Source of the DNA: Parcubacteria bacterium RAAC4_OD1_1
Lineage (GTDB): Bacteria > Patescibacteriota > Minisyncoccia > Phycocordibacterales > UBA9973
Direction: 5' to 3'
DNA: 64,000 nucleotides
Assembly: GCA_000505065.1 (NCBI GenBank)
Contig: AWSN01000001.1
Span: 132,247-196,246, forward strand
Part shown: positions 1-52,315 of the stretch, in pieces
Layout: each line of letters starts with the position of its first letter
Position numbering within the stretch: the stretch's first letter is position 1
Translations under genes and position numbers: made by a program
Notes under the pieces: model-generated
What the model was told of the DNA's origin: nothing
Database searches by the model: none
The model's input: only the letters and a program-made list of their open reading frames with translations

Positions 1-742
1 TAGCCACGGAATGATTCTTGCAGAAGAAGGGGAGAAAATGTCTAAATCTCGTGGTAATGTCATAAATCCAGATGAAATAATAAAATTATATGGAGCAGAC
101 ACACTTCGTCTTTATGAAATGTTTATTGGTCCTTTTGATCAAGCTGTCTCTTGGAGTACTGAGAGTATTATTGGGCCAAGAAGATTTTTGGAAAAAGTTT
201 GGAAAATAGGAGAAAAAATTGGCTCCTCGAGGTCGAACCTCGGGATCACTAGAGGTTCGACCTCTTCCCGCCAATCATATTCTGCTACATTTCAAACCTT
301 ACTTCATAAAACTATCAAAAAAGTAAGTGAAGATATTGAAAATATGAATTTTAATACAGCTGTTTCTTCTATGATGATACTTGTAAATGAAATGGAAAAA
401 CAAGATGTGGCAAAAAAAGATTTTGAAATGTTCTTACAAATATTATCTCCATTTTCTCCACATATAGCAGAAGAATTGTGGTATTTATTAGGGAATAAAA
501 AATCAATACATACTTCTTCTTGGCCTAAATGGGATAAATCTAAAATCAAAGAAGATAAAATAAAGATAGCGGTACAAGTAAATGGTAAGGTTAGGTCTGA
601 GGTAATCATAGATAAGGATTCTGATGAAAATTTGGTTAAAAATCTTGTCTTAAATCTTGTATCATTAAAACCTTGGATAGAAAATAAACAAATAAAAAAG
701 TTTATATATGTCCCAGGTAGGATTGTGAATATTGTGGTCTAG
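1..742 (+). CDS. leuS: Leucine--tRNA ligase, C-terminal part (gene starts before window)
   Basis: KMSKS motif, [13 protein letters not shown]-terminal VQVNGKVR and [11 protein letters not shown]. Confidence 0.96.
228..265. repeat. Intragenic palindrome doublet in leuS
   Basis: CGAGGT-CGA-ACCTCG (228-242) and AGAGGT-TCG-ACCTCT (251-265); 229-241 is the exact reverse complement of 252-264. Confidence 0.9.
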
Positions 743-807
743 TATTATTAAATTTAATTAGGTATAATGTATTTGTTGAGTTTTATTATTCATTAATAAA
801 AAATAAA

Positions 808-3171: not shown

Positions 3172-3182
3172 TTAATTTATAG

Positions 3183-7735: not shown

Positions 7736-7996
7736 GCCCTCGTAGTTCAATGGACCCCATCATAATGCTTCTGTAGTTCAATGGATAGAACAGTCCCGTC
7801 CTAAGGGATAGATGTCAGTTCGATTCTGGCCAGAAGCACAAATAAGCATTATGAGGGGCATGTGCCATAGTTCCGTCCTGAGGTGAGAAATGGGTAGGGA
7901 CCCATTTCGCAAGACCTTGAGCGTTTTGTAATCAAAATGCGAAAGGTATACCGCTTTTGTAAGAAGTAGATGCACGTTCGATTCGTACCGAGGGCA
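7736..7996 (+). pseudogene. Interrupted tRNA-like shell enclosing tRNA-Arg(CCU) and a structured insert
   Basis: 5' GCCCTCG-TA-GTTC-AATGGA (7736-7754) pairs perfectly with 3' CGAGGGC-A (7989-7996), preceded by T-arm GCACG-TTCGATT-CGTAC; D-stem 3' strand and a normal anticodon arm are not recognisable. Confidence 0.65.
7767..7838 (+). tRNA. tRNA-Arg(CCT)
   Basis: GCTTCTG/CAGAAGC acceptor, GTTC/GAAC D-stem, GTCCC-GTCCTAA-GGGAT anticodon arm, GTCAG-TTCGATT-CTGGC T-arm. Confidence 0.9.
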
Positions 7997-9770: not shown

Positions 9771-11981
9771 TTAAACTGGCTCGCCTTGGCTCGTATCAGG
9801 TGAGACAGGCCATTTTTCTATCATTAATAATTTTTTATTTTCCTTAAGAAACATACCCCATAATTCTTCTGTGACGAAAGGCATAAATGGATGGAGGATT
9901 TTTAATATTTTTTCTAGTGTGTATAGAAGAAAATGTTTTCTAGATAATATTTCTTTTTCTGCACCATTCTCGAAAATATTTTTACTTTCTTCAAGTATTA
10001 TATCAGCAAAACGTGCCCATGTATATTGATATATTTTTTCTCCAACCAAATAGAACTTATATTCATCCATTTCTTTTGTGATTTCTATTATTAATTTATC
10101 AATTTCATCTATTAATTTTTTATCTACATCTACATAATTATTAAAATTTTCATTTTTTATATTTTCAGTATTTGAAAGTACAAAACGAGTTATATTCCAG
10201 AGTTTATTTGCATAGTTTTTATATGCTCTTATTTTATCTTCTGACATTTTGCTGTCATTTCCGGGTCCTGTCCCTATGATGAGTGACATACGGACAGCAT
10301 CTGCTCCATATTTTGCTGTAAGCTCTAGTGGGTCAAGTGAATTTCCTAGAGACTTACTCATTTTTCTTCCTTGCGCATCTCTTACTATTCCATGTAAATA
10401 AACATTTTTAAAAGGAACTTCTCCAAGTAGATATGTACTCATAAGTATCATTCGAGCAATCCAAAAGAAAAGAATATCATACCCAGTTTCAAGCATATTG
10501 GTAGGGTGGTAAGTTTTAAAGTCAGATGCATTTAAATCTGGCCAGCCTAGGGTCGAGAATGTCCAAAGTCCTGAAGAGAACCAAGTGTCTAGAGTGTCCG
10601 AGTCTTGTTCCCACCCATTACCATTTGGTGTTTCTACTCCACAATATATTTCTTCACCCTTATACCAGACAGGGATACGATGTCCGTACCATATCTGGCG
10701 GGAAATACACCAATCACGTAGATTTTCTATCCAATTATAATAAACTTTTTCAAAACGATTTGGAATGATATTTACCTCTTTACTCCTTACAGCTTCAAGC
10801 ATTAATTCTTTTAAGCTTTTATTATCTCTCTCTTTTATTGGTTTGTTTACATCTATAAACCATTGAAGTTTTGGTAATGGTTCTATTATTCCACCAGTTC
10901 TTTCTGCAGTAGAAATATTTTGTGTTACTTCCTCTTCTTTTTCTAAAAGATTATTTTCTCTCAAAAAATTTACGATTACCTCTCTTGCTTCAATTGTTTT
11001 TTTGTTAAGAATCCTTTCATCTCCTACTGTCATTTTCGCAAATTCATTTATAACTTGTTTTGTATCTAATTTATGTCTTGTTGCAATATCAGCATCTATT
11101 TGTGAGTGAGCGGGGGTGACTCCGAGTGCCCCTGTTCCAAATTCTTTTTCCACAGATTCATCTGCTACTATTTTAATATTTAAAGATACTCCACAAAAAT
11201 CTTTAATTTCATAAGTTTTACCAATATATTTTTTATATCTTTCATCATTAGGGTGTACAGCAACAGCTGTATCTCCAACTTTTGTTTCTGGTCTGGTTGT
11301 AGAAATATAGATAGGGAAGTCATTACTATATTTAAATGTATATAGTTTTGCTTTTCTTTCTTCGTAAACTATTTCATCATCAGAAATTACGGTTTGACCT
11401 TTTGGATCCCAGTTTACGATTCTGTGCCCTCTATAAATAAGTCCATCATCATACATTTTCTTAAATGCAGTTCGGACTGCTAAATTTCTTTTTTCATCCA
11501 AAGTAAAAGCTTCACGAGACCAATCAAGGGATGCTCCCATTTTTTTAGATTGATTTATGATTGTATCATGACTTTCTTGTGCAAATTGATTTACTCTTTT
11601 TAGAAATTCTTCACGACCCAAATCTCCTTTTCTTTTACCTTCTTCTTTCTCTAATATTTTTTCAACTTTTGATTGAGTAGCAATTGCTGCATGATCTGTA
11701 CCTGGAAGCCAAAGCGTCTTATATCCTTTCATACGAGCAAATCTTGTCATAATATCTTCTATTGTAAGAGTCGCAGCGTGACCCAAATGCAGTGTCCCTG
11801 TCACATTTGGAGGAGGGAGAACCATAGAAAAAGTTTCTGCATCTTTATCCGTCATTCCTTTTTCTATACAAACATCTGGATTAAAAAATCCTGATTCTTC
11901 CCACATTTTATAAATACGATCCTCTGTCTCTTTAGGGTCGTATGGCTTCAATAATTTAGGATCTATATTTGACTCATTCAT
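9771..11981 (-). CDS. valS: Valine--tRNA ligase (short form, no C-terminal coiled-coil arm)
   Basis: PPPNVTGTLHLGH, DWCISRQIWYGH, KMSKS; start at MNESNID. Confidence 0.96.
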   Translation of the reverse strand: MNESNIDPKLLKPYDPKETEDRIYKMWEESGFFNPDVCIEKGMTDKDAETFSMVLPPPNVTGTLHLGHAATLTIEDIMTRFARMKGYKTLWLPGTDHAAIATQSKVEKILEKEEGKRKGDLGREEFLKRVNQFAQESHDTIINQSKKMGASLDWSREAFTLDEKRNLAVRTAFKKMYDDGLIYRGHRIVNWDPKGQTVISDDEIVYEERKAKLYTFKYSNDFPIYISTTRPETKVGDTAVAVHPNDERYKKYIGKTYEIKDFCGVSLNIKIVADESVEKEFGTGALGVTPAHSQIDADIATRHKLDTKQVINEFAKMTVGDERILNKKTIEAREVIVNFLRENNLLEKEEEVTQNISTAERTGGIIEPLPKLQWFIDVNKPIKERDNKSLKELMLEAVRSKEVNIIPNRFEKVYYNWIENLRDWCISRQIWYGHRIPVWYKGEEIYCGVETPNGNGWEQDSDTLDTWFSSGLWTFSTLGWPDLNASDFKTYHPTNMLETGYDILFFWIARMILMSTYLLGEVPFKNVYLHGIVRDAQGRKMSKSLGNSLDPLELTAKYGADAVRMSLIIGTGPGNDSKMSEDKIRAYKNYANKLWNITRFVLSNTENIKNENFNNYVDVDKKLIDEIDKLIIEITKEMDEYKFYLVGEKIYQYTWARFADIILEESKNIFENGAEKEILSRKHFLLYTLEKILKILHPFMPFVTEELWGMFLKENKKLLMIEKWPVSPDTSQGEPV

Positions 11982-12003
11982 AAGTAAAATATAGCATATT
12001 TTA

Positions 12004-13188
12004 CTATAAAGATAAATTCCCATTGGCTTTGATGGAGCCCAGTTTTGTTGTATATTTTTTATTTTTATATTGGTAGTATCCTGCGATGGCGATCATAAGA
12101 GCATTGTCTCCTGTGTGGCCACGGCCCGGGAAGTGGGCTTTGATCTTTAGGAAGTCCGACTTCCTAACTTTTTTAATTTCATTAGTTATAACTTTTTTAA
12201 GTTGAGGAGAAGCAGAGACTCCACCTCCCACTATTAGGGTTTTGATTTTATATTCCCTTATTGCTTTCATTGTTTTATAAGAAAGCACTTCAAATGCTGC
12301 ATCTTCAAATTCTTTGGCAATTTTTCTTTTTATATCATCTGTAAGTTCTCCGATATCTCGTATCATATAAAGCACAGCAGTTTTAAGTCCTGAAAAAGAA
12401 AAATCATAATCTTTTGAATACATCATCGGACGGGGGAGTTTTATTTCTAGTATTTCACTCGAAATGTTATTCCCGTCAGCACGCAATAAATTTCTGCTGA
12501 AATTTTTGCTCGTGCTCGGCCCGTCGGCCTGCGCAAGGCTTTCTGGAACAACATTCTCTCGTTCCATACTAGCTAATTTTCCAATCTCTGGTCCGCCCGG
12601 GTAAGGGAGCCCCATCATACGAGCGACTTTGTCGAAAGCTTCTCCAACGGCATCATCGCGAGTTTGCCCAATTTTTTTGTATTTCATCCAATTTTTTATA
12701 AAAACAAGTTCCGTGTGTCCACCAGAAACAAGAAGTGTAAGCATTGGGAACAGTTCTTTGGTGTTTTTAATTGTGAAATTTTTTCCTTTTTTAGGAAATA
12801 TAGAAAATATATGTCCCTCCATATGGTTTACGGGTACTATTGGTAATTTATATTTTGAGGATAATTCTTTTGCAAAGACTATTCCAGTCCAAAGTGCAGG
12901 CTCAAGCCCTGGTCCAGTAGTGACAGCGATTGCATTTATTTTTTTATTAATATCTTTTTCTCTAATTTTTGCTTTTCTTAAAACTTTTTCAAATACAAGT
13001 GGCAGATTTTTTATATGCTCTCTTTTAGCAAGAGCAGGATAGACACCACCATATTCTTTATGGATATCTATCTGTGAAGAAACTTCATTTCCAAGTATTT
13101 TAAATTTTGTAGTTTTACCCTGTTGTTTAATCTCCACTATTGCTATGGCAGTCTCATCACAAGATGTTTCTATGGCTAATATTTTCAT
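12004..13188 (-). CDS. tsaD: tRNA N6-adenosine threonylcarbamoyltransferase TsaD
   Basis: ILAIETSCDET, NHMEGH, LLVSGGHT, DDAVGEAFDK, FSFSGLKT. Confidence 0.96.
   Translation of the reverse strand: MKILAIETSCDETAIAIVEIKQQGKTTKFKILGNEVSSQIDIHKEYGGVYPALAKREHIKNLPLVFEKVLRKAKIREKDINKKINAIAVTTGPGLEPALWTGIVFAKELSSKYKLPIVPVNHMEGHIFSIFPKKGKNFTIKNTKELFPMLTLLVSGGHTELVFIKNWMKYKKIGQTRDDAVGEAFDKVARMMGLPYPGGPEIGKLASMERENVVPESLAQADGPSTSKNFSRNLLRADGNNISSEILEIKLPRPMMYSKDYDFSFSGLKTAVLYMIRDIGELTDDIKRKIAKEFEDAAFEVLSYKTMKAIREYKIKTLIVGGGVSASPQLKKVITNEIKKVRKSDFLKIKAHFPGRGHTGDNALMIAIAGYYQYKNKKYTTKLGSIKANGNLSL
12147..12167. repeat. Intragenic palindrome in tsaD
   Basis: TTAGGAAGT-CCG-ACTTCCTAA, perfect arms. Confidence 0.85.
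12458..12561. mobile_element. ~105-bp structured element inserted in frame in tsaD
   Basis: Outer stem AATGTTATTCC/GGAACAACATT, inner hairpin with TGCT loop; motifs shared with 34056-34175 and 63682-63792. Confidence 0.65.
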
Positions 13189-13245
13189 GAAAATACTATA
13201 ACATAAGGGTTTTTATTTGGCTATTATTTGTGGTAGAATTGAAAT

Positions 13246-13824
13246 ATGGAAAAGAAACATATTATAACTATCGCAGGTAAGCTTGGAAGTGGTAAATCTT
13301 CTACTGCTAAAAAGGTTGCAGAGATTTTGGGATATGAACATAAATCCACAGGAGATTTTATGAGAGAGATAGCAATAAATAGGGGTGTTTCTTTAGGAGA
13401 TTTAAGTGTAATAGCTGAAAATGATCCTTCTATTGATAAAGAGCTTGATGATCATAATTTAAATATTGGGACAAAAGATAATGTTGTTTTAGATTCAAGA
13501 CTTGGTTTTCATTTTATTCCCAATTCCTTTAAAGTTTTTTTAGAATTAGATGAAGCTACTTCAGCAGAAAGAATTTTAAAAGATAAACTCAGTAATCCAA
13601 ATAGAAATACAGAAGCTACTGGAGGTTTTGATACAATTAAAAATATTAAAGAAAAAATAAAACTAAGATTAGAAAGTGAAAAGAAGAGATATAAAGATTT
13701 ATATAATATAAAAGATCATACCATTCATTCTAATTTTGATTTAGTTATAAATACAAAAGAGGTTTCACTTGAAGAAGTTTCAAAAAGAGTCATAGAAGAA
13801 TATAATAATTGGCTTAATAAATAA
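13246..13824 (+). CDS. cmk: Cytidylate kinase (archaeal-like type)
   Basis: ITIAGKLGSGKSS P-loop, VVLDSRLG, RYKDLYNI, FDLVINT. Confidence 0.8.
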   Translation: MEKKHIITIAGKLGSGKSSTAKKVAEILGYEHKSTGDFMREIAINRGVSLGDLSVIAENDPSIDKELDDHNLNIGTKDNVVLDSRLGFHFIPNSFKVFLELDEATSAERILKDKLSNPNRNTEATGGFDTIKNIKEKIKLRLESEKKRYKDLYNIKDHTIHSNFDLVINTKEVSLEEVSKRVIEEYNNWLNK

Positions 13825-13830
13825 AACGAG

Positions 13831-15285
13831 ATGAAAATACTAAATGAAATTTTAAAAGATATCATAATTTTAGAGTCAAAGGGAAACGTTGATACCCCTG
13901 TTTCTTCTGTGTCTTTAGATTCGAGAGATATAGAGCCCCATTCTTTGTTTGTTGCACTTATTGGTAATGTTTTAGACGGGCATTCTTTTATAGATGAAGT
14001 TGTTGAAAAAGGGGCCAAAGTTATAGTTCATGAGAAGGATTTAAGTGAATATAAATCTGGCGTGACTTATATTAAAGTAAAAGATACTCATGAAGCAGTT
14101 GGTATTATTGCAAGTAATTTTTATGGCAATCCGTCCAAGCATTTAAAGCTTGTTGGTGTGACAGGGACAAATGGTAAAACGACAACTGCAACACTTCTTC
14201 ATCAATTATTTAGAAATCTTGGTTATAAAGCTGGGATGATCGGCACAATAGTAAATAAAGTAAATGATGAATCTTATGAAGCTAAACGTACGACCCCAGA
14301 TCCTATTTCTCTAAATAAAATTCTTGCTGAAATGGTGGATAAAGGTTGCGAATATGTATTTATGGAAGTATCTTCTCATTCTATTTCAGAAAAAAGAGTT
14401 TCGGGTCTTTCTTTTGTAGGTGGAATATTTACAAACCTTACCCTTGATCATTTGGATTATCACAAGACTATAGAAAGTTATGCTGAAGCGAAAAAAGGTT
14501 TCTTTGATATGATTCCTAGTTCTGGTTTTGCAATTGCAAATATAGATGATGATATGGGGGAATATATGCTTTCTACTACTAAAGCAAAAAAATATGTATT
14601 TGGGTTAAAAAATGCAGAGGTCAGACCTATGCAAATTTTGCAGAGGTCAGACCTCTGCGGATCAGACCTCTGCGGATATTTTAATGAAAGATTAGAAACA
14701 AAATTAATTGGTGAATTTAATGCTTACAATATTTTAGGAATTTATGCTGTAGCGGTTTTGCTTGGACAAGATAAAGAAAAAATAAAAGAAATTATTAAAG
14801 ACTTAGATGGAGCTCCTGGCAGATTTCAAGCGATAAAAAATAACGATGGAATTATTGGAATTGTAGATTATGCTCATACTCCAGATGCATTAGAGAATGT
14901 TTTAAAAACTGCTAATGGTATAAAAAAAGATGGCAGGCTTATTGCTTTGGTTGGTTGTGGTGGAGATAGAGATAGAAGTAAAAGGCCGATAATGGCTCGT
15001 ATCGGATATGATTTAGCAGATATACTTATCCTTACATCTGATAATCCTCGCACCGAGAAGCCAGAAGATATTCTTATGGAAATGCAGAAAGGTTTACCTC
15101 TTGAAGCATTAGACAAAGTGGAAATAATTGTAGATAGGCATATGGCAATAGAAAAAGCATGCTCCATAGCAAAATCTGGAGATATCATTTTGGTTGCAGG
15201 AAAAGGTCACGAGAATTATCAAGAGGTCAATGGAGTTAAACACCATTTTGATGATTTGGAAGAGTTAGAAAAATATTTAAAATAA
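13831..15285 (+). CDS. murE: UDP-MurNAc-tripeptide synthetase (mDAP-type)
   Basis: GVTGTNGKTT, MEVSSH, VDYAHTPDAL, DNPR, GKGHENYQ. Confidence 0.96.
   Translation: MKILNEILKDIIILESKGNVDTPVSSVSLDSRDIEPHSLFVALIGNVLDGHSFIDEVVEKGAKVIVHEKDLSEYKSGVTYIKVKDTHEAVGIIASNFYGNPSKHLKLVGVTGTNGKTTTATLLHQLFRNLGYKAGMIGTIVNKVNDESYEAKRTTPDPISLNKILAEMVDKGCEYVFMEVSSHSISEKRVSGLSFVGGIFTNLTLDHLDYHKTIESYAEAKKGFFDMIPSSGFAIANIDDDMGEYMLSTTKAKKYVFGLKNAEVRPMQILQRSDLCGSDLCGYFNERLETKLIGEFNAYNILGIYAVAVLLGQDKEKIKEIIKDLDGAPGRFQAIKNNDGIIGIVDYAHTPDALENVLKTANGIKKDGRLIALVGCGGDRDRSKRPIMARIGYDLADILILTSDNPRTEKPEDILMEMQKGLPLEALDKVEIIVDRHMAIEKACSIAKSGDIILVAGKGHENYQEVNGVKHHFDDLEELEKYLK
14613..14676. repeat. Intragenic palindromes plus 15-bp tandem duplication in murE
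   Basis: TGCAGAGGT-CAG-ACCTATGCA, GCAGAGGT-CAG-ACCTCTGC, TCAGACCTCTGCGGA x2 (14647-14676). Confidence 0.9.
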
Positions 15286-16680
15286 ATGCAAAATTATAAA
15301 CAATTTTTTAAAGGGAAGAAGATTACAGTCATGGGGCTTGGGATACTTGGGCGTGGGGTAGGGTATACTAAGTTCTTGGCAGAGTGTGGTGCGGATTTAA
15401 TAGTGACAGACCTAAAGACTAAAGAACAACTCGCTATTTCAATTAAAGCTTTAGAAAAATTCTCCAGTCCTAAGCAAGGCTTGGGACCGATAAAATTTAT
15501 ATTAGGGGAACATAGGTTAGAAGATTTCAAGGGTAGGGATATGATTATAAAAGCTGCTGGGGTACCGTTTGATTCTATTTACATAAAAGAAGCTAAGAAA
15601 AATAATATTCCTATCGAGATGGATGTCTCACTGTTTGCTAAACTTGCGAGAGATGTAAAGATAGTAGGTGTGACAGGGACTCGTGGAAAAAGTATGACAA
15701 CAACTTTGATATATGAAATTCTATCAAAGAATATTAAAGATCAAAAAGTTTATATTGGTGGCAATCTTCGAGGAGTTGCCACATTGCCATTACTCAAAAA
15801 AGTAAAAGATGGAGATATTTTAATTTGTGAGCTAGATTCTTGGCAACTTCAAGGGTTTGGAGATAGTAAAATATCTCCAAACATTTCCGTCTTTACTTCT
15901 TTTATGCCTGATCATATGAATTATTATAAAAATAGTATGGAAAAGTATTTTGATGATAAGGCAAATATTTTTAAATATCAAAAAAAAGATGATGTTCTAA
16001 TAATTCGTCCAGGGATGAAAAGTTTTATAAAGAAATCTAATGTTAAAGGAAAATTAATTGTAATTAATCCAAACGATGTTATAGCTTGGAAATTTAATGT
16101 ATTAGGAGCTCACCATAGAGAGAATTTAGCATGTGCGGTAGAAGTAGCGAAGCAATTTGATATACCAATTTCTAAAATCAAAAAAACTGTAGCAGATTTT
16201 AAAGACTTAGAAGGTAGAATGCAATTACTTAGAGTTTATAAGGGGATAAAGATTTATAATGACAACAATGCCACAACCCCCGAAGCAACGATTGCAGGGC
16301 TTGAAGCCTTAAGTGATCAGCCAAAGGCCTTGCCTATGGCTAGCCATAGGCAAGGCCTTTGGCAAAAAAACATTATTCTTATTTGTGGTGGTGCTGATAA
16401 AAATTTACCACTTGAGAATCTTGTAAAAGTTGTAAATAAGAATTGTAAATTTATTTCTTTGATTCCTGGAGGCGGAACTGATAGGTTGTTGTCTAATAAA
16501 AATTTAAAAGTAAAAAGTTATAAAGGAACTGATTTTAAAGATATAATAATTACAGCAATTAATAATGCAAAAAGGGGAGATATCGTGATTCTTTCTCCAT
16601 CATTTGCTTCGTTTGGGATGTTTAATAATGAGTATGAAAGAAATGATTTATTTATGAAAATAGTCAAAAATTTAAAATGA
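15286..16680 (+). CDS. murD: UDP-MurNAc-L-Ala--D-Glu ligase
   Basis: GLGILG, GVTGTRGKS, ELDSWQL, DHMNYY, LSPSFASFGMF. Confidence 0.95.
   Translation: MQNYKQFFKGKKITVMGLGILGRGVGYTKFLAECGADLIVTDLKTKEQLAISIKALEKFSSPKQGLGPIKFILGEHRLEDFKGRDMIIKAAGVPFDSIYIKEAKKNNIPIEMDVSLFAKLARDVKIVGVTGTRGKSMTTTLIYEILSKNIKDQKVYIGGNLRGVATLPLLKKVKDGDILICELDSWQLQGFGDSKISPNISVFTSFMPDHMNYYKNSMEKYFDDKANIFKYQKKDDVLIIRPGMKSFIKKSNVKGKLIVINPNDVIAWKFNVLGAHHRENLACAVEVAKQFDIPISKIKKTVADFKDLEGRMQLLRVYKGIKIYNDNNATTPEATIAGLEALSDQPKALPMASHRQGLWQKNIILICGGADKNLPLENLVKVVNKNCKFISLIPGGGTDRLLSNKNLKVKSYKGTDFKDIIITAINNAKRGDIVILSPSFASFGMFNNEYERNDLFMKIVKNLK
15467..15487. repeat. Intragenic palindrome in murD
   Basis: GTCCTAAGC-AAG-GCTTGGGAC; nearly identical to the unit at 50095-50119. 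Confidence 0.85.
16320..16363. repeat. Perfect 44-bp intragenic palindrome in murD
   Basis: GCCAAAGGCCTTGCCTATGGCT|AGCCATAGGCAAGGCCTTTGGC. Confidence 0.95.
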
Positions 16681-16681
16681 T

Positions 16682-17257
16682 ATGGATGAAATTAAGATTT
16701 TAAATTCTAAAATATTTATATATAAAAATTATGAAAATGATTTTAAAGATGTTGTTACTCCTAATTTAATCCATTCTGATAATATTTTGGAAGTAAAAGA
16801 TGGAAAAGAAAAAATGGATAATTTAGATGGTATTTTTACTTCAAACAAAGAAATAAAAATAGGAATTAAAACAGCAGATTGTGCGCCTGTATGTTATTTC
16901 GATGGAGAGAAAATAGGAATTGCTCATATAGGGTGGCCAGGTTTATGTACTGAACTTAATAAAAAAATGCTTTCAAATTTTAATACAAAAAACCTTAAAA
17001 TATTTATTGGCCCATTTATACATAGATTTGAAATAAAAAAAGATTTTTGTTTTGATAAACTAAAAGGTGATTTTAGTATGTTTATGGATTATGAAGGTGA
17101 TAAAATATTTTTTAATTTTAAAGATGCATTATTGTCTCAATTTAAAAGTCTTAATGTTATAATAGATGGAAGAGATACATTTATGGATTTATCTTTGCCA
17201 AGTTATCGTAGAGATAAAACAAAAGATAGATTATTAACAGTTATAAGTTTTAATTAA
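16682..17257 (+). CDS. YfiH/PgeF (laccase-domain) family protein
   Basis: DGIFT, TADCAPV, AHIGWPG, IGPFI, SYRR motifs. Confidence 0.85.
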   Translation: MDEIKILNSKIFIYKNYENDFKDVVTPNLIHSDNILEVKDGKEKMDNLDGIFTSNKEIKIGIKTADCAPVCYFDGEKIGIAHIGWPGLCTELNKKMLSNFNTKNLKIFIGPFIHRFEIKKDFCFDKLKGDFSMFMDYEGDKIFFNFKDALLSQFKSLNVIIDGRDTFMDLSLPSYRRDKTKDRLLTVISFN

Positions 17258-17258
17258 T

Positions 17259-17498
17259 ATGAAAAAATTAGAAATTGGGGAGATATATAAACATTATAAG
17301 GGGACGAAGGTGAAGGTCCTCGGGGAGTGTCTACATAGTGAGACTCTGGAGTGTATGGTTATTTATATACACTTAGAAGATGGGGCGACTTGGGTAAGAC
17401 CAAAGAAAATGTTTCTAGAAAATATAAAGGTTGGGAATAAAAAGGTTGAAAGATTTAAAAAGATTAAATCAAGAATTTTAATTAAGCCCGGGAAATAA
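17259..17498 (+). CDS. DUF1653-like protein
   Basis: YKHYKG, HSETLE, WVRPKKMF. Confidence 0.85.
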   Translation: MKKLEIGEIYKHYKGTKVKVLGECLHSETLECMVIYIHLEDGATWVRPKKMFLENIKVGNKKVERFKKIKSRILIKPGK

Positions 17499-17501
17499 AA
17501 T

Positions 17502-18182
17502 ATGCATAAAATTTCTGTAATTATACCTGCTCATAATGAAGAGGGGTATATAGGAAAAACTATTGAAGTATTAAATAAAAATAATGTTTCTTTTGAGCTG
17601 ATTGTTGTATGTGATTCTTGTAAAGACAATACAGGAGAAATTGCTAAGCAATATACCGATATGGTTTTTAATGTGGATTTTCAGACTGTTTCAAAAAATA
17701 GAAACTTTGGAGTCAGTAAATCCTCGGGAGATGTTTTGGTATTTTTAGATGCAGATACTATTGTTTCAGATAATTATTTGAGTGAGATTTCTAAAATGAT
17801 TGAAACTTACGATATGGGTTGTGCAAAATGGAAAAGTGAGAGCAATACAATATTAGGTAATTATATAGTGTGGCTTACAAATAGATATAATAGAAAAAAT
17901 ATTGGTGGTAATTTTTTTATAAAGAAAGATTTATTTAATAAACTTGGGGGATTTAATGAGAGTATGAAAAGAGGTGAGGACACAGACCTTGGGGAGAGGG
18001 CAAGAAAGATAGGAACTCATTATGTATTTATGGAGAATTGTTTTATAATTCCAAGTGAGAGGAGATATAGGGAGAATGGGTATTTAAAGATGATCATTAA
18101 ATCAGGGGTTTGGGGTTTCTTTTATAAAAATTTTAGAAATTATTATAATAAAAAGATAGGGAGTAAATTTTATGAGCAATAA
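17502..18182 (+). CDS. Glycosyltransferase family 2
   Basis: SVIIPAHNEE, FLDAD, GGFNE..GEDTD. Confidence 0.92.
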   Translation: MHKISVIIPAHNEEGYIGKTIEVLNKNNVSFELIVVCDSCKDNTGEIAKQYTDMVFNVDFQTVSKNRNFGVSKSSGDVLVFLDADTIVSDNYLSEISKMIETYDMGCAKWKSESNTILGNYIVWLTNRYNRKNIGGNFFIKKDLFNKLGGFNESMKRGEDTDLGERARKIGTHYVFMENCFIIPSERRYRENGYLKMIIKSGVWGFFYKNFRNYYNKKIGSKFYEQ

Positions 18183-18789
18183 AAAACAAATTATATATGT
18201 TGGTGGGGGAAATGCTTTTGAAAAAAAAGAAGATTTTTATGAATATCTTAAAGAATATGAATTAGACCCTTATGATAAAAATAAAAGATGGACCAGAGAA
18301 TTGCCTGTTATTTTGGAAGATAAATTTGATTATTTTAAAATTGAAATGCCCTCAAAAGATGAGGCTGATTATATAGCTTGGAAAATTTGGTTTGAAAAAT
18401 ATTTGAAATTTTTAAATGACAAAGAAACAATTTTGATGGGATATTCGCAAGGTGGTACTTTTTTGTTAAAATACTTATCAGAAAATTTATTTCCAAAAAG
18501 AGTTAAGCAAATTCATTTAATTGCACCATTTGTTAAAGAAAACAATTTTGAAAAATATAAGTTAATGAATTTTAAATTTGATTTATCTAAAATTAATAGA
18601 ATTAATGAAATTTGTGATGATGTTCATATATGGTATTCATCGGATGATTTTCTTGTTTTACCAGATAATTCTGAAATTGTTATAAAAAACATACCAAAAA
18701 TCGTTATTCATAAATTTGATGACAGAAATCATTTTTTTCAAGAAGCTTTCCCAGAATTATTAGAAGTAATAAATAAGTCAATTTTATGA
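18172..18789 (+). CDS. Alpha/beta hydrolase (YdeN/RBBP9-like)
   Basis: GYSQGG nucleophile elbow, SSDD, NHF. Confidence 0.8.
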   Translation: MSNKKQIIYVGGGNAFEKKEDFYEYLKEYELDPYDKNKRWTRELPVILEDKFDYFKIEMPSKDEADYIAWKIWFEKYLKFLNDKETILMGYSQGGTFLLKYLSENLFPKRVKQIHLIAPFVKENNFEKYKLMNFKFDLSKINRINEICDDVHIWYSSDDFLVLPDNSEIVIKNIPKIVIHKFDDRNHFFQEAFPELLEVINKSIL

Positions 18790-19739
18790 TTAAGCCCATT
18801 TTAGTAACTGGTTATGTAAATCCTGACTTAGATGCTGTGGCTGGGTCTATGGCTTATTCGGAGTTTTTAATAAAAAAAGGTATTGAGTGCATTGTTGGTT
18901 TTTTGGGTGAACCTCATGAAGAAGCAAAATATATTTTAAATAGATTTAATATTAAATATCCAGAGCAAATCGAGAATGATGCTAATTTTGAAAAAGTAAT
19001 ATTAGTTGACGCAAGTGATTTAACTGGGTTGGAGAATAGAATTAATCCAGATAAGGTAATTGAGATAATAGACCATAGAAAGGTAAATGAAGCTGATAAA
19101 TTTACTAATGCAAAGGTTCAGATTGAATTAGTTGGCTCTGCTTGCACACTCGTTGCAGAAAAATTTATAGAAAATAAGGTAAATATTTCAAAAGATAGTG
19201 CTATTCTTTTATGTGGAGCTATAATATCTAATACCTTGAATTTTAAAAATAAAGGTGTTACTACGGAAAGAGATATAAAAGCTTTTAAATATTTAAATGA
19301 GATAGCTCTATTGCCTATAGATTTTAAAAAAGACCTTTTTGAATCAAAGTCCGACTTATCTGGAGATAAATTAAAAGAAAGAATTATGGGTGATTTAGCT
19401 TGGTTTAATTTAAGTGGTAAAAGAGTAAGTATTGCTCAATTAGAAATAGTAAATTCCAATAAGATAATTAGTAATAGAGTAGATGAAATTATTGATATAT
19501 TTAATGAAATAAAGAAAGATTTAAAACTTGATTATATATTTTTAAATTTAATAGAGTTAGAAGATGAAAAAAATTTCATCATAACAGATGATATTGAACT
19601 ACAGTCAATTTTGGAAAAAATTTTAAATATAAAATTTGAGTCTAATCTGGCTATAAGAAATGAATTAATAATGAGAAAGCAAATAGTCCCTTTATTTAAA
19701 GATGAATTAGAGAAAATTATAAATAAAGACATAAAATAA
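18786..19739 (+). CDS. Mn-dependent inorganic pyrophosphatase (DHH family, PpaC-like)
   Basis: NPDLDA, ILVD, IIDHR, VGSACT, MRKQIVP. Confidence 0.85.
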   Translation: MIKPILVTGYVNPDLDAVAGSMAYSEFLIKKGIECIVGFLGEPHEEAKYILNRFNIKYPEQIENDANFEKVILVDASDLTGLENRINPDKVIEIIDHRKVNEADKFTNAKVQIELVGSACTLVAEKFIENKVNISKDSAILLCGAIISNTLNFKNKGVTTERDIKAFKYLNEIALLPIDFKKDLFESKSDLSGDKLKERIMGDLAWFNLSGKRVSIAQLEIVNSNKIISNRVDEIIDIFNEIKKDLKLDYIFLNLIELEDEKNFIITDDIELQSILEKILNIKFESNLAIRNELIMRKQIVPLFKDELEKIINKDIK

Positions 19740-19743
19740 ACTT

Positions 19744-20190
19744 ATGAATACACATACTGATAGTTTAAAAACAATAAAATGTAGAGGAATTATTTTTAAT
19801 AATGATAAAATTCTTGTAGTGAAGCATAGTATAAATCATGATTTTTATGCTTTACCAGGTGGACATTTAGAGGGTCAAGAAGATGCAAAAGAATGTGTAG
19901 AAAGAGAAATTTTTGAGGAGTTTGGTATTAAACCAGAGGTTGGAAAGCTTTTGTATATAAATCAATATAAATATTTTGAGAATGATAATTTTCTAGAATT
20001 CTTTTTTGAAATAAAAAATAGTCAGGATTATTTAGATATAGGTAAATTAAAAGGTAGTCATTCTTATGAATTAGTAGATGTATTATGGGTTTCAAAAGAA
20101 GATGATATTAATATCTTGCCTAAAAAATTAAATGAAGATTTTAAAAATGGTTCGGTTTTACACGATGAAGTGATTTTTATAAAGGTTTAA
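19744..20190 (+). CDS. NUDIX hydrolase
   Basis: PGGHLEGQEDAKECVEREIFEEFG Nudix box. Confidence 0.92.
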   Translation: MNTHTDSLKTIKCRGIIFNNDKILVVKHSINHDFYALPGGHLEGQEDAKECVEREIFEEFGIKPEVGKLLYINQYKYFENDNFLEFFFEIKNSQDYLDIGKLKGSHSYELVDVLWVSKEDDINILPKKLNEDFKNGSVLHDEVIFIKV

Positions 20191-20206
20191 TTAATAAAAA
20201 TATAAT

Positions 20207-20725
20207 ATGTCAATAAATAAAATTTGTGGGGGAGATAATTATACGTTTAATGATAAATCAATGACTATATCAATGCCAATTTCTGTCCCTCGATTTCCAG
20301 AAAAAATAATTTTCAATGATTATGATTTATCTTTAAAAATGACTTTCCATGTAACTCTCGTTCCCATTGGTGAATTAATAAAGAAACATAAGATTGAAAT
20401 TCCTAATTTTAATGATTTAATCTTAGAAGATTTTTGTAGTTTTGTTAATTCAAATAAAATTGAATTAATTAAATACAGAAATGAGTTTCGTTTTGTTGAA
20501 GAGAATGATCTAAGATCAGTAGTCATTATGTGTGATGTAACTAATTTAGATATTTTTTTCAAATTAATAAATGAAAAATATAATTTAAATTTAGAAACTT
20601 CACCAACTCACGTCACTTTATATATACTACCTGATAAGGGTGGAATATTTATACTTGATTCAGAAGATTTAAAAAATAAAACAGAATTAATAGAAATACC
20701 AGAATTAAGTAATTATTTAAAATAA
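20207..20725 (+). CDS. Putative 2H phosphoesterase
   Basis: Two HxT motifs (FHVTL, THVTL) about 85 aa apart. Confidence 0.6.
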   Translation: MSINKICGGDNYTFNDKSMTISMPISVPRFPEKIIFNDYDLSLKMTFHVTLVPIGELIKKHKIEIPNFNDLILEDFCSFVNSNKIELIKYRNEFRFVEENDLRSVVIMCDVTNLDIFFKLINEKYNLNLETSPTHVTLYILPDKGGIFILDSEDLKNKTELIEIPELSNYLK

Positions 20726-20726
20726 T

Positions 20727-21509
20727 ATGGAAAAATTTGAGATAAAAAACAGAAAAGGATTGAAGATTGTTGGAAATATTTTAAAACCCAATAATCCAAT
20801 TGGATTATCTTTTGTAATGCATGGATTAGGTGGATACAAAGAAGAACATCACATAGATTTAATGGCTAATACTTTATTTGAAAACAATTATACTGTTATA
20901 AATTTTGATGCAACAAATTCTAGGGGGGAAAGTGAGGGGAAATACGAAGATGCAACAATGCAAATACATTATGAAGATTTAGTTGATGTTATAAATTGGG
21001 TAAAGACACAAACTTGGTATAAAGAACCGTTTATTTTAGCTGGTCATAGTATGGGTGGATATGCTGTCGCAAGATATGCAGAAGAATTCCCTCTAGAAGT
21101 AAAGGGCGTATTCCCGTTTGGTGCAGTTTTTTCTGGTAAAGATTGTTTTGAAACATATAAAAAACTAAGAACAGAAGAACTTAATGATTGGAAAGAAACG
21201 GGTTGGACTTATAGAACTAGTAAATCAAAACCAGAATTTGAGATGAAGCTTCCTTGGTCTCATATGGAAGAAAGATTAAAACATGATTTAAAACCAATGG
21301 TAGATAAAATCATTATGCCTATATTATTTGTTGCAGGAGAAAATGATACAAGTTGTCCCCCTGAAGATCAAAAAAAGTTTTATGATTTATTATCAGAAAA
21401 AACAAAAAAAGAATTTCATATTGTAAAAGGGGTTGGGCATGTATTTCGTGAATCAGAGCATTTAAATCAATTAAAAGAAATATTTAATAATTGGTTAAAT
21501 AGTTTATAA
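20727..21509 (+). CDS. Alpha/beta fold hydrolase
   Basis: HGLGG, GESEG, GHSMGG, GEND, GHVF. Confidence 0.9.
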   Translation: MEKFEIKNRKGLKIVGNILKPNNPIGLSFVMHGLGGYKEEHHIDLMANTLFENNYTVINFDATNSRGESEGKYEDATMQIHYEDLVDVINWVKTQTWYKEPFILAGHSMGGYAVARYAEEFPLEVKGVFPFGAVFSGKDCFETYKKLRTEELNDWKETGWTYRTSKSKPEFEMKLPWSHMEERLKHDLKPMVDKIIMPILFVAGENDTSCPPEDQKKFYDLLSEKTKKEFHIVKGVGHVFRESEHLNQLKEIFNNWLNSL

Positions 21510-21516
21510 TAAATTT

Positions 21517-22848
21517 ATGAATTTAGAATTATCAAAAATAAATAACGTTCACTTTATTGGTATTGGGGGTATCGGTATTTCGGCTGTGGCGAGAATGATG
21601 AAAGTAATGGGAAAGAATGTCACAGGGCAAGATATGCAAGATGGGGAGATTGTTAAGGAGTTAAAAAAGTTGAATATTGAAATAAACATCGGCCATCAAT
21701 CATATGAGAATATATCGGATGATACAGAGCTTGTTATTTATACTGTGGCAATTGAGACTTATGATAAAGAACTTTTTGAGAAATTAAAATCGCAAGATAA
21801 GTTTATTATTAAATCATATCCAGAAATGCTCGGAGTTATAAGTGAAGATAAATATACCATTGCTGTTTGTGGGACTCACGGCAAGACGACGACGACAGGA
21901 ATGCTCAAAGAGATATTTGTAGATAATGGGAGTGATCCAACAGTTATAGTGGGGAGTTTACTTAAAGATAAAGATGGATCTCGGACCAATTTTATTCATG
22001 GTACGGGCTCTCATTTTATAGTGGAAGCTTGCGAATATAGAAGGTCATTTTTAAATATCAATCCAGACATTGTAGTTATTACAAACATAGACAATGATCA
22101 TTTGGATTATTATAAAGATATAGAAGATATAAAAAGTGCTTTTCGTGCCTTTGTAGAAAAATTACCTGAAGATGGATATGTAGTTTGTAATATAGATGAT
22201 GAAAATATAAAGGATGTAGTAAATGGAATAAAAGCAAAGGTAATAAACTGGGGTGAGTATTTTGATGGAGAATTAAAACTTAAAATTCCAGGGATACATA
22301 ATAAGAAAAATGCGGCCGCTGCCACGGCTGTCGCCCTCACTTGTGGTATCTCAAAAGAAAAATCCCAGGAATATGTAAAAAATTTCCCTGGTACATGGAA
22401 GCGTTTTGAATTTAAGGGCAAGCTTCCAAATGGAGTGTTGGTCTATGATGACTATGCTCATCATCCTACAGAAATTACTTCAACCTTAGAGGGTTTTAGA
22501 GAAATTTATCCTAAAAGTAAAGGTTGGAATATCACAGTAATATTCCAACCACATCTTTTCTCTCGGACCAAGCTACTTCTTAATGATTTTGCACAGAGCT
22601 TTTATGATGCTGATCAAGTAATAATATTGCCTATATATTATGCTCGTGAAGTTGATGATGGTAGTATCTCATCTTTAATTTTATCAGACGAAATAAACAA
22701 ATTTACCCATAATTCTAAAGTCTTCCTTGATTTTAAATCATCCGAAAATTACTTGGGAGCTGAGCTCCCAAGTATGGGGGAGAAAAATATTATAGTTACA
22801 ATGGGGGCTGGGGAAGCCTCTAAAATAGGAGATATTATACTTAAATAG
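21517..22848 (+). CDS. murC: UDP-MurNAc--L-alanine ligase
   Basis: HFIGIGGIGISA, GTHGKTTT, DDYAHHPTEI, FQPH, TMGAG. Confidence 0.96.
   Translation: MNLELSKINNVHFIGIGGIGISAVARMMKVMGKNVTGQDMQDGEIVKELKKLNIEINIGHQSYENISDDTELVIYTVAIETYDKELFEKLKSQDKFIIKSYPEMLGVISEDKYTIAVCGTHGKTTTTGMLKEIFVDNGSDPTVIVGSLLKDKDGSRTNFIHGTGSHFIVEACEYRRSFLNINPDIVVITNIDNDHLDYYKDIEDIKSAFRAFVEKLPEDGYVVCNIDDENIKDVVNGIKAKVINWGEYFDGELKLKIPGIHNKKNAAAATAVALTCGISKEKSQEYVKNFPGTWKRFEFKGKLPNGVLVYDDYAHHPTEITSTLEGFREIYPKSKGWNITVIFQPHLFSRTKLLLNDFAQSFYDADQVIILPIYYAREVDDGSISSLILSDEINKFTHNSKVFLDFKSSENYLGAELPSMGEKNIIVTMGAGEASKIGDIILK
22750..22774. repeat. Intragenic palindrome in murC
   Basis: TACTTGGGAGC-TGA-GCTCCCAAGTA, perfect arms. Confidence 0.9.
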
Positions 22849-22870
22849 TTTATGGTATAATAAAAATAGT

Positions 22871-32849: not shown

Positions 32850-32977
32850 ATCCCCACACCTATATTTTTATTAATTTCATTATTTTTCTTTAAAATGAAG
32901 ATAATATTTAAATGATTGAATTTTGTAAAAGTAATACTGTCCGTTTTTTAAAACAATAAAAATATAGGTGTGGGGAT
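32850..32977. repeat. 128-bp MITE-like element with perfect 23-bp terminal inverted repeats
   Basis: ATCCCCACACCTATATTTTTATT (32850-32872) / AATAAAAATATAGGTGTGGGGAT (32955-32977). Confidence 0.8.
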
Positions 32978-39956: not shown

Positions 39957-39987
39957 CCCCAGATAGTGGTTAAACCACTATCTGGGG
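39957..39987. repeat. Intergenic palindrome of the 3-nt-loop type
   Basis: CCCCAGATAGTGGT-TAA-ACCACTATCTGGGG, no poly-T tail. Confidence 0.85.
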
Positions 39988-41754: not shown

Positions 41755-41792
41755 TAATTACTAATTACAAATTAATAATTTGAAATAAAATT

Positions 41793-41821
41793 AAAAAAAC
41801 CTAGCACAGCTAGGTTTTTTT
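41793..41821. terminator. Bidirectional terminator
   Basis: AAAAAAACCTAGC-ACA-GCTAGGTTTTTTT. Confidence 0.75.
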
Positions 41822-41837
41822 AATTAGTAATCATTAA

Positions 41838-44983: not shown

Positions 44984-45034
44984 TTTTAAAACAAACAAAA
45001 CCCCGATTATTTCGGGGTTTTGTTTGTTTTAAAA
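44984..45034. terminator. Long hairpin terminator
   Basis: TTTTAAAACAAACAAAACCCCGA-TTATT-TCGGGGTTTTGTTTGTTTTAAAA. Confidence 0.75.
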
Positions 45035-49632: not shown

Positions 49633-50379
49633 CTATTTATTCAAATAATAAAGTCTTTTTGTTTCGGGGAGTCTTTCGATAGCATAACGAAGCATAGTGC
49701 GGGGCATTTTGTTTGAATTTTGATCTAAGTATGAAAGTAACTCCTTCTCATCCACCCTTTTACCCACCTCTCGGAGCATCCACCCACAAGCTTTATGAAT
49801 AAGATCATGTTTATCTTTCATAAGCATATCTGTGATTTTGAAAGTCCAATCTGCTTCTTTTTTATAAATAAAAGCGAAAGTAGAAATAATTGCAATACGT
49901 CTTTCCCATAAATTCTTCGATTTAGCTAACCTAGCAAGGACGGTCCTTGCTAGGTTTTTATTTTTATATAAATAGTCACCCAATATATAATGAGCAGATA
50001 AATCTACTAAATCCCAGTTATTTATATATTTGGTATTTTTCAAATAAAATTTTACAATTTTACTTTTTTCCCCTAGGTCCGACCTAGGGGAACTCGCTCC
50101 TAAGCCTTGCTTAGGAGCGGTTAATTTTTGATATTTTTGAACTAAAATCAAAAGGGCAACAAGACGGGCTTCATGATATTTATTATTTAATAATTCTTGT
50201 ATTTCTTTGAAGTCTATATGAGTATATTTCTTTGCGATACTTCTAGATACTGGAACGGTAATACCGAGGAATACATCTCCTTCCCCATATTCTCCTTTTC
50301 CAGTTTTGAAAAATCTAGTTAAGATTTTAGATTTATCTTTATTTTTTAATTTTAATAATTCATTGATAACCTTTGACAT
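49633..50379 (-). CDS. DNA alkylation repair protein (AlkD-like)
   Basis: FFKTGKGEYGEGD, NNWDLVD, KACGWMLRE, MPRTMLRYAIE. Confidence 0.9.
   Translation of the reverse strand: MSKVINELLKLKNKDKSKILTRFFKTGKGEYGEGDVFLGITVPVSRSIAKKYTHIDFKEIQELLNNKYHEARLVALLILVQKYQKLTAPKQGLGASSPRSDLGEKSKIVKFYLKNTKYINNWDLVDLSAHYILGDYLYKNKNLARTVLARLAKSKNLWERRIAIISTFAFIYKKEADWTFKITDMLMKDKHDLIHKACGWMLREVGKRVDEKELLSYLDQNSNKMPRTMLRYAIERLPETKRLYYLNK
49928..50119. repeat. Three intragenic palindromes in the AlkD-like gene
   Basis: AACCTAGCAAGGA-CGG-TCCTTGCTAGGTT (49928-49956); TTCCCCTAGGT-CCG-ACCTAGGGGAA (50068-50092); CGCTCCTAAGC-CTT-GCTTAGGAGCG (50095-50119). Confidence 0.92.
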
Positions 50380-50427: not shown

Positions 50428-50562
50428 ATGGAAATAGTAAAGTTTTTTAATGAATTTTCACCAAGCAATTTTTTGGTCTTTTCAATAATTGTTGTAATTT
50501 TGTCTCTCATACTGTATTTAATATTACCTAAAAGAGATAAAAAACCTCCCAGTTCTTCTTGA
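50428..50562 (+). CDS. Possible 44-aa single-TM peptide
   Basis: MEIVKFFNEFSPSNFLVFSIIVVILSLILYLILPKRDKKPPSSS, ending in a terminator hairpin. Confidence 0.4.
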   Translation: MEIVKFFNEFSPSNFLVFSIIVVILSLILYLILPKRDKKPPSSS

Positions 50563-50584
50563 AAAAGAAGACTGGGAATTTTTG

Positions 50585-52315
50585 TTATATGAACAATCTC
50601 GCTATTCTTATATCTTCAAAACTCAGACTGTGTCCTTCTTTTTCTAATATTAATTTTATTGGATTTAATTTCCCCACTTCTTCCCCTTTCAATTTTTTAT
50701 TTACTTTTTTTACTAAGTCTATATTTTTCTGCGAAGGTTTAATATGAGAAATAATTGTTTCCGGATATTCTTTCATTATTTCTTCTATGTGGTGAGTGAT
50801 AGTACCTTGGGTAAGATTTCTTTCTTTTGCTATTTGTTTTATATTTTTTCCACTTTCCAATAATTCTTTGGTTACTAAAATGGTTGGGATTTTGGTGTCT
50901 ATAATTTTTCTTTTGCTTTTTCGGTGAGTTTTTGATGATGTGTCTAAAGTCCCACCCATTCTTTTTATAAAATCACTTTCCATTTTTTGTTGATCAGATT
51001 TATTTAGTTTACTAAAAACAATTTCATTTTCAGCACTTTCATTTTTTAATTCTTGATCAAATTTTAAAACTTCCGGATCTACTTTTAAAGCATTTTTATT
51101 TAAGCCTATCAATTTTATACCAGAAAGGGTCCGAACTCGAGAAAGAGCAACATACCCCATCCCATAAGCAAAGGTGCTTCTAAGGTCGATTTCTGCGTTA
51201 TCTAGGGACATTCCTTGGCTTTTGTGTATTGTTATGGCCCAGGCGAGGCGAAGTGGAAGCTGTGTTATGGAGGCTTTTATTTTGCCGTCTTCTTCTATAG
51301 CCCAAAGCATTGGGGTTATGGTCACAGTCTTACCGTTATATAGTTTTATTATTGGGTTATGGGTTTCAGGATCAAAATCTACCACTTTGCCTCGAGAGCC
51401 ATTTACATAACCACTTTCCATATTATTTTTAATACACATAATCTCGGCACCAATTTTTAGGCGAAGTTCTTCGTGGGCTAAACAACTTTTTTTCAAAATA
51501 TCAACAATGATATCATTTCCTTTAGAAGTCATATAATATATTTTTTCTTCAGCATCTATTTTTGAAAGTTCGGTGTGATTTTCATTGTCTACATTTACAT
51601 TGTGAGTATATAATTTTGTTGCTTTTTCATTATTATTTAATTTTGCGTCAATTCGTTTTTCTAAATATTTATAATGTTTATCTTCTGTATTATTGTCACG
51701 AATTGTATTTAATATTTCTGTTAAAATATTGTCTTCTTGTCTATGTTGCTCTGTTAAATAGCAAATTGCAGGATTTAATATTTTCCAAGCATCGCTTATA
51801 TAGACCATTTTTGTCCCACCAGTCGGACTGGTGGGATTACCCACTAGTCCGACTGGTGACTCTTCATATATTCGTTTTTCTACTGGTGGAAGCTGAAAGA
51901 AATCTCCAGAGAGTATTACTTGTAATCCACCAAAAGGTTTCTCTACTCTTTTAAATTTTCGGCAAACTTTTTCTATCATATCAAGTTGGTATCCATGAAG
52001 CATCGATATCTCATCTATTATTAGGACTCTGGCTTTCTCGAATCTGTTCCAGAGATATTTTTTCTCTTCGAGTTGATCAAGATCCCTTTCATCCATTTTG
52101 TTTTTAACACCTATCCCAGACCAGCCGTGTATAGTCATACCGTTCATATGAGTAGCGGCAATACCAGTCGAGGCCGTCACTGCGACAGCGATGTCGTGAT
52201 CTTGTAAATATGAAATGTATTGATTGAGTAAATATGTCTTACCAGAGCCTGCACTACCTGTCAGATAAATATTCACCCCAGTTTTCATAATTTTCAAAGC
52301 TTGTTCTTGGGTCAT
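50585..52315 (-). CDS. PIF1-family SF1B helicase with C-terminal HTH
   Basis: GSAGSGKT, IDEISM, GDFFQLPP, AWAITIHKSQG, YVALSR. Confidence 0.92.
   Translation of the reverse strand: MTQEQALKIMKTGVNIYLTGSAGSGKTYLLNQYISYLQDHDIAVAVTASTGIAATHMNGMTIHGWSGIGVKNKMDERDLDQLEEKKYLWNRFEKARVLIIDEISMLHGYQLDMIEKVCRKFKRVEKPFGGLQVILSGDFFQLPPVEKRIYEESPVGLVGNPTSPTGGTKMVYISDAWKILNPAICYLTEQHRQEDNILTEILNTIRDNNTEDKHYKYLEKRIDAKLNNNEKATKLYTHNVNVDNENHTELSKIDAEEKIYYMTSKGNDIIVDILKKSCLAHEELRLKIGAEIMCIKNNMESGYVNGSRGKVVDFDPETHNPIIKLYNGKTVTITPMLWAIEEDGKIKASITQLPLRLAWAITIHKSQGMSLDNAEIDLRSTFAYGMGYVALSRVRTLSGIKLIGLNKNALKVDPEVLKFDQELKNESAENEIVFSKLNKSDQQKMESDFIKRMGGTLDTSSKTHRKSKRKIIDTKIPTILVTKELLESGKNIKQIAKERNLTQGTITHHIEEIMKEYPETIISHIKPSQKNIDLVKKVNKKLKGEEVGKLNPIKLILEKEGHSLSFEDIRIARLFI
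51814..51858. repeat. Intragenic palindrome doublet in the helicase
   Basis: TCCCACCAGT-CGG-ACTGGTGGGA and CACTAGT-CCG-ACTGGTG in inverted orientation. Confidence 0.9.

Follow-up and report, generated by a model that had tools for sequence, protein, structure and literature searches.

Short in-frame hairpins in core genes of a Parcubacterium and the HUH-tyrosine enzymes that may copy them

How repetitive extragenic palindromic (REP) sequences spread is still described as unsolved (PMC8266576), and the published accounts tie them to some classes of REP-associated tyrosine transposase (RAYT) only: the part of Quentin 2018 (PMC6006769) that deals with the genes of subclass 2.1 records no REP-like sequence near them, and the classification of Bertels (bioRxiv 10.1101/119735) links REPINs to groups 2 and 3 alone. 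Short REPs translated in frame are known, intragenic copies with a GTAG/CGTC tag being described by Di Nocera 2013 (PMC3733652) in O. terrae, Thioalkalivibrio and others; a sequence-only reading of the DNA considered here, which knew in-frame coding palindromes only from the long Rickettsia palindromic elements (RPEs), was too narrow in this respect. Here, we describe short GC-rich hairpins in the core genes of Parcubacteria bacterium RAAC4_OD1_1, starting from a stretch of 64,000 nucleotides (the window, C1:132247-196246, where C1 is the single contig of the genome, AWSN01000001.1). Sequence comparison suggests that these hairpins are probably non-autonomous REP-like elements, copied by HUH-tyrosine enzymes via cut-and-overwrite on single-stranded DNA.

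The genome (G000) comprises 693,530 bases at 31% GC, and the named relatives of its proteins belong to Ca. Nomurabacteria and other Patescibacteria; among the relatives compared (G021, G022, G041 etc.) the closest, G022, shares only ~85% protein identity. The window holds 15 palindromic units, 14 of them in frame in seven intact genes and one intergenic, so that all of the GC-rich palindromes listed by the sequence-only reading are present, as are the recurring peptides it named. The host open reading frames (ORFs) are uninterrupted and give full-length family matches to the LeuS C-terminus, TsaD, MurE, MurD, MurC, a PF08713 DNA alkylation repair (AlkD-like) protein and a PIF1-like helicase. 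That reading took the units for a single family with 3-nt loops; palindromic they are, but many are of odd length with a single centre base, the 3-nt loop being the steric minimum, and they fall into several sequence families. Units are 17-45 nt in size and use all three reading frames, with stems that reach past the family core and are longer between genes (median half-length 13 versus 11). In ORFs genome-wide, GC-rich hairpins (stem of at least 8, 3-nt loop) number 30 compared to 0-5 in 20 synonymous-codon shuffles, and family cores 44 compared to 0-2, far above either control.

A census with 105 palindromes flanking enzyme genes of the genus as queries (up to 2 mismatches) returned 110 matches, 53 of them in 34 ORFs, compared to 12 and 10 ORF matches in two shuffles that preserve the inserted peptides. 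The load is ~100 copies per 0.69 Mb, about half in ORFs, and hosts beyond the window include argS, ileS, pheT, ligA, topA, uvrB, fmt, mnmA, miaA, rsmA and the genes for RNase HII and a Xer-type recombinase. One census match, at window position 16295, was judged to be chance and excluded from the 15 units. Ten window units lie within 0-2 mismatches of the flanks of enzyme genes resident in the genome and five match relatives' flanks only (the leuS, tsaD, first murD, 50095 and helicase types), a split that is approximate because the leuS and helicase doublets count twice each and for the leuS 5' half the scoring was by pattern.

The suggestion of a REP-like system with its mobiliser encoded elsewhere was borne out by seven HUH-tyrosine (RAYT/TIRYT-like) genes, all outside the window (C1:33249, 61964, 75911, 442114, 499537, 531872 and 672155; TIRYT, a tyrosine transposase associated with terminal inverted repeats). 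Their products, of 220-234 residues with an NHFH motif and a conserved Tyr, are 35-71% identical to each other, and H82, H84 and Y142 are invariant across 50 sequences of the family. PF01797 (Y1_Tnp) matches six of the seven, four above cut-off, and in a Pfam scan of four of them Y1_Tnp was the only domain, with no helix-turn-helix (HTH) extension. A PDB search with one enzyme sequence returned nothing relevant; the best PDB match of the family profile is E. coli TnpA-REP (4ER8, E 0.011), with the conserved Tyr aligned to what we take to be its catalytic Tyr. Against the RAYT equivalog NF047646 the four enzymes scanned score 22-46 bits, below the cut-off of 80. The three plasmid matches examined out of 12 all have GGGGTCAG ends, the type given as the TIRYT motif in Di Nocera 2013 (PMC3733652); one of these relatives ends in a self-complementary GGGGTC-W-GACCCC, and one matches the enzyme profile (99%, E 6.7e-18). 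Of the TIRYT motif itself, GGGG[AT][CG]A[CG], one family here has a variant, TAGGTC-N-GACCTA, the other families being without it. By sequence, then, the enzymes resemble TIRYT-type or group-1 proteins. The tetranucleotides GTAG, GTGG and CGTC occur 2, 3 and 0 times, respectively, among 94 hairpin copies in both orientations (background ~5%, 5% and 2%), and the hairpins are not REPs of the GTAG/CGTC-tagged kind. The system behaves as a REP/RAYT pair would, but since both the tag and the cut-off tests for REP/RAYT failed, as did the HTH test for subclass 2.1, we file it as a TIRYT-like variant belonging to neither. The enzyme family is present in 52 of 61 genus genomes and 72 of 301 genomes of the phylum.

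All seven resident enzyme genes are flanked by their own palindrome and six contain an in-frame inner copy, although the 3' end of C1:75911 carries a different, imperfect hairpin. Of 90 genus loci sampled (30 listed matches and 60 more, favouring genomes with housekeeping loci available for comparison), the 85 with flanks have hairpins upstream in 69, downstream in 63, on both sides in 58 and within the gene in 42; a wider scan of 80 loci found at least one flank hairpin in 72 and both in 58. AGG-N5-CCT is the core met most often in the flanks, and its loop and outer stem vary. Inner copies equal their own flank in 38 of 41 loci and the inner copy of the nearest relative in 11 of 41. Similar enzymes tend to have similar hairpins (Mantel rho 0.55, 0/999 permutations), hairpin type follows enzyme clade in a quick tree with three plasmid proteins as outgroup, and over 60 genomes the count of cores increases with that of enzymes (rho 0.70; -0.01 for a reversed-pattern control), correlations that are overstated because kin are not independent. 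The nine enzyme-free genomes stand at background (median 2, control 6). In G000 itself, 74 copies lie at a distance from enzyme genes, and 42 of them differ from a resident flank by at most 1 mismatch, where sets of seven palindromes drawn at random from the genus give a mean of 5.9 (0/2000); in 16 other genomes 9 of 37 elements match a resident flank compared to 3.8 expected (8/1000), a small share that comes from incomplete metagenome-assembled genomes and a partial set of enzyme loci.

The enzyme loci are semi-stable. All seven genes are absent from the syntenic sites in G022 (643 kb of which is covered), while 20 of 70 genus loci have a neighbour that also adjoins one of the seven, 57 distinct genes are found as neighbours, and one enzyme clade occupies a fixed site in 11 genomes. 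The shared neighbours and the fixed site weigh against a freely mobile cassette, and loss with occasional relocation fits the history of these loci better than frequent transposition. At C1:672042-672875 an enzyme gene lies between ~50-bp direct repeats of hairpin plus flank. In G022 this place holds a single copy, whose hairpin is a different one, a layout that would fit the integration of a circle at a resident hairpin. Between gyrB and thrS (C1:61369-63018) two small genes, one NUDIX-like by eye, adjoin the enzyme gene, and a cognate hairpin precedes the first of them; all three genes are absent there in G022, and the first small gene is found at that site in three relatives.

Comparison of orthologues shows that most hairpin sites are absent from most relatives and hence mostly derived, as the sequence-only reading expected. 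Its picture of clean indels holds less well: of nine single-hairpin sites empty in G022, seven gain fewer than 7 codons, less than the hairpin encodes, while doublets gain 12-13 codons, near their own length. Many events thus appear to be replacements of codons rather than clean insertions. The murC palindrome (22750..22774, + strand; YLGAELPS), identical to the flank of enzyme C1:33249, is length-neutral: 23 of 24 genus relatives have a protein of equal length, and in five of them a palindrome of another family shares its centre. An alignment-based AlphaFold model (pLDDT, the model's confidence score, 91.7; 36.8 for a single-sequence fold) places this peptide in helix 406-419, at odds with the idea that all such peptides form loops. 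Beyond the window, dprA contains a perfect 23-nt resident palindrome (C1:358464-358486) made up of codons for the conserved LDSGLTTIS motif. None of 29 relatives shows an indel there; the palindrome has 1 mismatch in G022 and is absent from the other 28, its chance given the peptide is ~1e-4, and the proteome holds only one other element-free 6-residue match. Terminators compared between G000 and G022 have exchanged stems and kept their A/T tracts (C1:410321, 673836, 7684 and 61369), and further intergenic hairpins have changed in place (477734, 642038 and 672048).

The remaining window sites vary on this theme. The inverted doublet of leuS (228..265, +; two units), 1 mismatch from a genus enzyme flank, makes the gene 12 codons longer than in G022; in G021 the doublet keeps this scaffold, but both of its halves carry another 5-nt core. 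In tsaD a single palindrome (12147..12167, -; VRKSDFL) adds a net 4 codons; its core is identical to flanks of relatives' enzyme genes, the loop holds palindromes of five types in 10 of 29 relatives, and the arms are kept complementary via compensatory, often synonymous changes. The murE doublet with a partial tandem copy (14613..14676, +) is 1-2 mismatches from the flank of enzyme C1:672155; the loop is empty in 26 of 29 relatives and holds a related doublet in G041. The first murD site (15467..15487, +; SPKQGLG, +7 codons) is empty in 13 of 17 relatives, decayed in G021 and hairpin-bearing in 3 of 72 metagenome sequences. A perfect inverted doublet (PKALPMASHRQGLWQ; 16320..16363, +), each of whose halves differs by 1 mismatch from the C1:61964 enzyme flank, occupies a hotspot loop of the same gene, where 31 of 73 distinct metagenome sequences (the best MurD relative being 77% identical) have a hairpin, with 23 different cores, compared to 0/72 and 1/73 in control stretches. 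In the AlkD-like gene (- strand) a 29-nt palindrome (49928..49956; NLARTVLARL) adds a net 3 codons relative to G022 and has 2 mismatches to the flank of enzyme C1:442114 and 0 to a genus flank, and two adjacent palindromes of different families (50068..50092, APKQGLGA, identical to the flank of enzyme C1:75911; 50095..50119, SPRSDLGE) lie in a loop with a third hairpin family in G022. The helicase doublet (SPVGLVGNPTSPTGG; 51814..51858, -) makes the gene 12 codons longer than in G022, and its core is identical to enzyme-gene flanks in G069 and G004. A resident cognate enzyme is absent for the leuS, tsaD, first murD and helicase sites. The intergenic palindrome (39957..39987), downstream of rplI, has a core identical to the flank of enzyme C1:499537.

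Two of these genes also hold repeats of other kinds. A second in-frame structured repeat of ~120-140 nt (ESLAQADGPSTSKNF...) lies in tsaD (window 12430-12575); relatives have the same or unrelated long hairpins in that loop, G022 is without it, and related intergenic copies lie at C1:119590, 517912, 653262 and 676082. The murD loops of relatives L002, L005, L010, L013, L016 and L021 contain other repeat classes in frame (CCTGCGCAGGCAGG-type, CTTCGACT.CGCTCAG-type and GCCCAAGGCGGATCCGCC doublets).

If the hairpins are REP-like elements copied by these enzymes to new sites, with a short stretch of target replaced, each enzyme would bind its own folded hairpin (core AGG-N5-CCT), nick it via the Tyr and transfer the strand, by analogy with E. 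coli TnpA-REP, for which nicking and strand transfer in vitro are described (PMC8266576). The transferred strand would anneal to hairpins of similar sequence, or through micro-homology of a few bases, and be fixed by repair, which would account for both new insertions with deletion and the rewriting of old copies. Selection would purge sites that do harm or shift the frame; what remains would be tolerant loops, struck repeatedly, and a few sites at which the peptide suits an existing helix or motif. With the loss of an enzyme gene, or a shift in its specificity, the copies belonging to it would decay or be rewritten.

Besides the kinship of the genomes and the low match rate outside G000, several points weigh against this scheme. 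No guide tetranucleotide was found near the hairpins (94 copies), which leaves the choice of cleavage site unexplained. MurC is two codons shorter in 19 of 45 metagenome relatives, so the site may date to an old event of +2 codons, later rewritten or hit twice. With G022 only ~85% identical the junctions are blurred, and replacement could partly be insertion followed by deletion; where one site shows different families, a tolerant loop may have taken up independent insertions, and gene conversion by the host, or template switching, could by itself make copies uniform. Contigs of four sequencing runs over window 11900-23000, inspected for same-strain polymorphism, gave no informative junction.

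A more radical version, which we consider possible though doubtful, makes the HTH-less TIRYT-like lineage a hairpin-templated rewriter that converts look-alike DNA with no need for a change in length. Its targets would be old copies, terminator stems and conserved coding motifs such as the MurC helix and the DprA core motif, and enzymes in changing combinations, seven at most, might, on the same tentative footing, continuously edit the core proteome and the terminators.

Ordinary REPIN-like insertion of singles and doublets, with replacement mimicked by later deletions, repeat hits and arm-preserving host repair, seems unlikely. The first murD site does fit a clean 21-nt insertion, doublet gains approach doublet length, hotspot loops are also struck by unrelated repeat classes, and REPINs are described as the mobile unit in Pseudomonas (PMC3337134). 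Such insertion sits poorly, however, with the leuS doublet, whose halves share the same change of 4 of 5 core bases in a common scaffold, with terminators that retain their A/T tracts while the stem is swapped, with inner copies that track their own flanks, and with the DprA site and its lack of any indel.

We regard as very unlikely an origin free of the enzymes, in which replication template switching and host gene conversion generate the hairpins and the enzyme genes are just another target. The compensatory changes in the tsaD arms, stems that exceed the family core, more so between genes, and the many long perfect AT-rich palindromes of the window would suit it; yet the hairpins differ in type according to enzyme clade, genomes with more enzymes hold more copies while those with none stay at background, and copies far from the enzyme genes agree with resident flanks much more often than expected by chance. 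Spread of hairpin-bearing patches between species by homologous recombination with flanking sequence, in a homing-like manner, is least probable of all, for although ~25 nt beside the murE insert match the distant, insert-sharing G041 and differ from G022, and the first murD hairpin is common to G000 and G021 and not G022, synonymous identity to G022 within 20 codons of hairpins at 22 sites (0.59-0.66) is similar to that near 59 non-palindromic indels (0.65-0.67).

Very long perfect AT-rich palindromes with 17-23-bp stems lie between genes at window 41789-41825, 44984-45034, 53831-53875 and 61562-61600; they are probably two-way terminators and may point to a general perfecting of hairpins in the lineage. 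Elsewhere, an intergenic GC-rich hairpin (window 7887-7925) is followed by a 13-mer that recurs at C1:6868, a ~130-bp element (window 32850-32977) resembling miniature inverted-repeat transposable elements has 15-bp terminal inverted repeats (CCCCACACCTAT...), with seven or more similar loci genome-wide, and just past the window (C1:198869-203208) a 28-37-nt motif is repeated between small genes.

Enzyme-hairpin pairs by the dozen, orthologous sites with and without a hairpin, and sites where the hairpin family has changed form a natural data set on how repeats spread, one that points to copy-and-overwrite and supplies substrates that could be assayed directly. In it, a repeat family is tied to an enzyme group for which no REPs have been reported, and streamlined 0.7-Mb genomes are seen to tolerate heavy repeat traffic in essential genes, as in the MurD loop (31/73). 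It also counsels caution, since short peptides and indels common to proteins of Patescibacteria can be convergent. Should enzymes drive the rewriting, they are candidates for DNA editing with short templates. With short in-frame REPs already known, the pattern of hairpin overwrite is the most novel part.

A literature search outside subscription journals found no report of such hairpins in Patescibacteria, and returned the term TIRYT from PMC3733652 and PMC6006769 only. The nearest described system, TIRtrons and their TIRYTs (probably TnpA-Y1 subclass 2.1, equivalent to RAYT group 1; PMC3733652, PMC6006769, bioRxiv 10.1101/119735), shares as described there the HUH motif and Tyr, untagged repeats at both ends and several distinct enzymes per genome, and the plasmid-relative end GGGGTC-W-GACCCC parallels the AGGTC-N-GACCT family found here. 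The 20 TIRYTs placed in subclass 2.1, in contrast, are all listed with an HTH extension (PMC6006769), of which we found none, TIRtrons are described with long terminal inverted repeats where the flanks here are short perfect hairpins, and the reports on subclass 2.1 and group 1 contrast with ~100 hairpin copies in 0.69 Mb, about half in ORFs. Proteobacterial REP/RAYT systems, as presented in PMC2817692, PMC3686654 and PMC8266576 (we also drew on bioRxiv 10.1101/2021.07.10.451892), are similar in their cognate flanking palindromes, co-evolution, doublets, copy number tied to enzyme presence, semi-stable loci with loss, and orthologous enzyme genes with different REP classes ('orthoswitch'). They differ in the GTAG/GTGG/CGTC tag, absent here, in scores relative to the NF047646 cut-off, which our enzymes do not reach, and in REPs being described as mostly extragenic, compared to about half of the hairpins here in ORFs; those accounts, where consulted, do not mention coding sequence being rewritten in place. 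The intragenic REPs of PMC3733652 are likewise short, occur singly or as dimers and are translated in frame within repair, replication and tRNA genes, but are given there as tagged and as a minor fraction of their families, whereas the hairpins here are untagged. Subclass 2.4 is described with a cognate repeat in frame inside the enzyme gene, a feature that Quentin presents as unique to that subclass (PMC6006769) and that occurs here in a TIRYT-like lineage. RPEs, finally, resemble the hairpins in their many in-frame copies, metabolic host genes and small AT-rich genome (PMC10969869); the RPE-1 type is portrayed in that source as ~150 bp long with a conserved peptide and no linked enzyme, whereas the units here, at 17-45 nt, are read in three frames and have linked enzymes.

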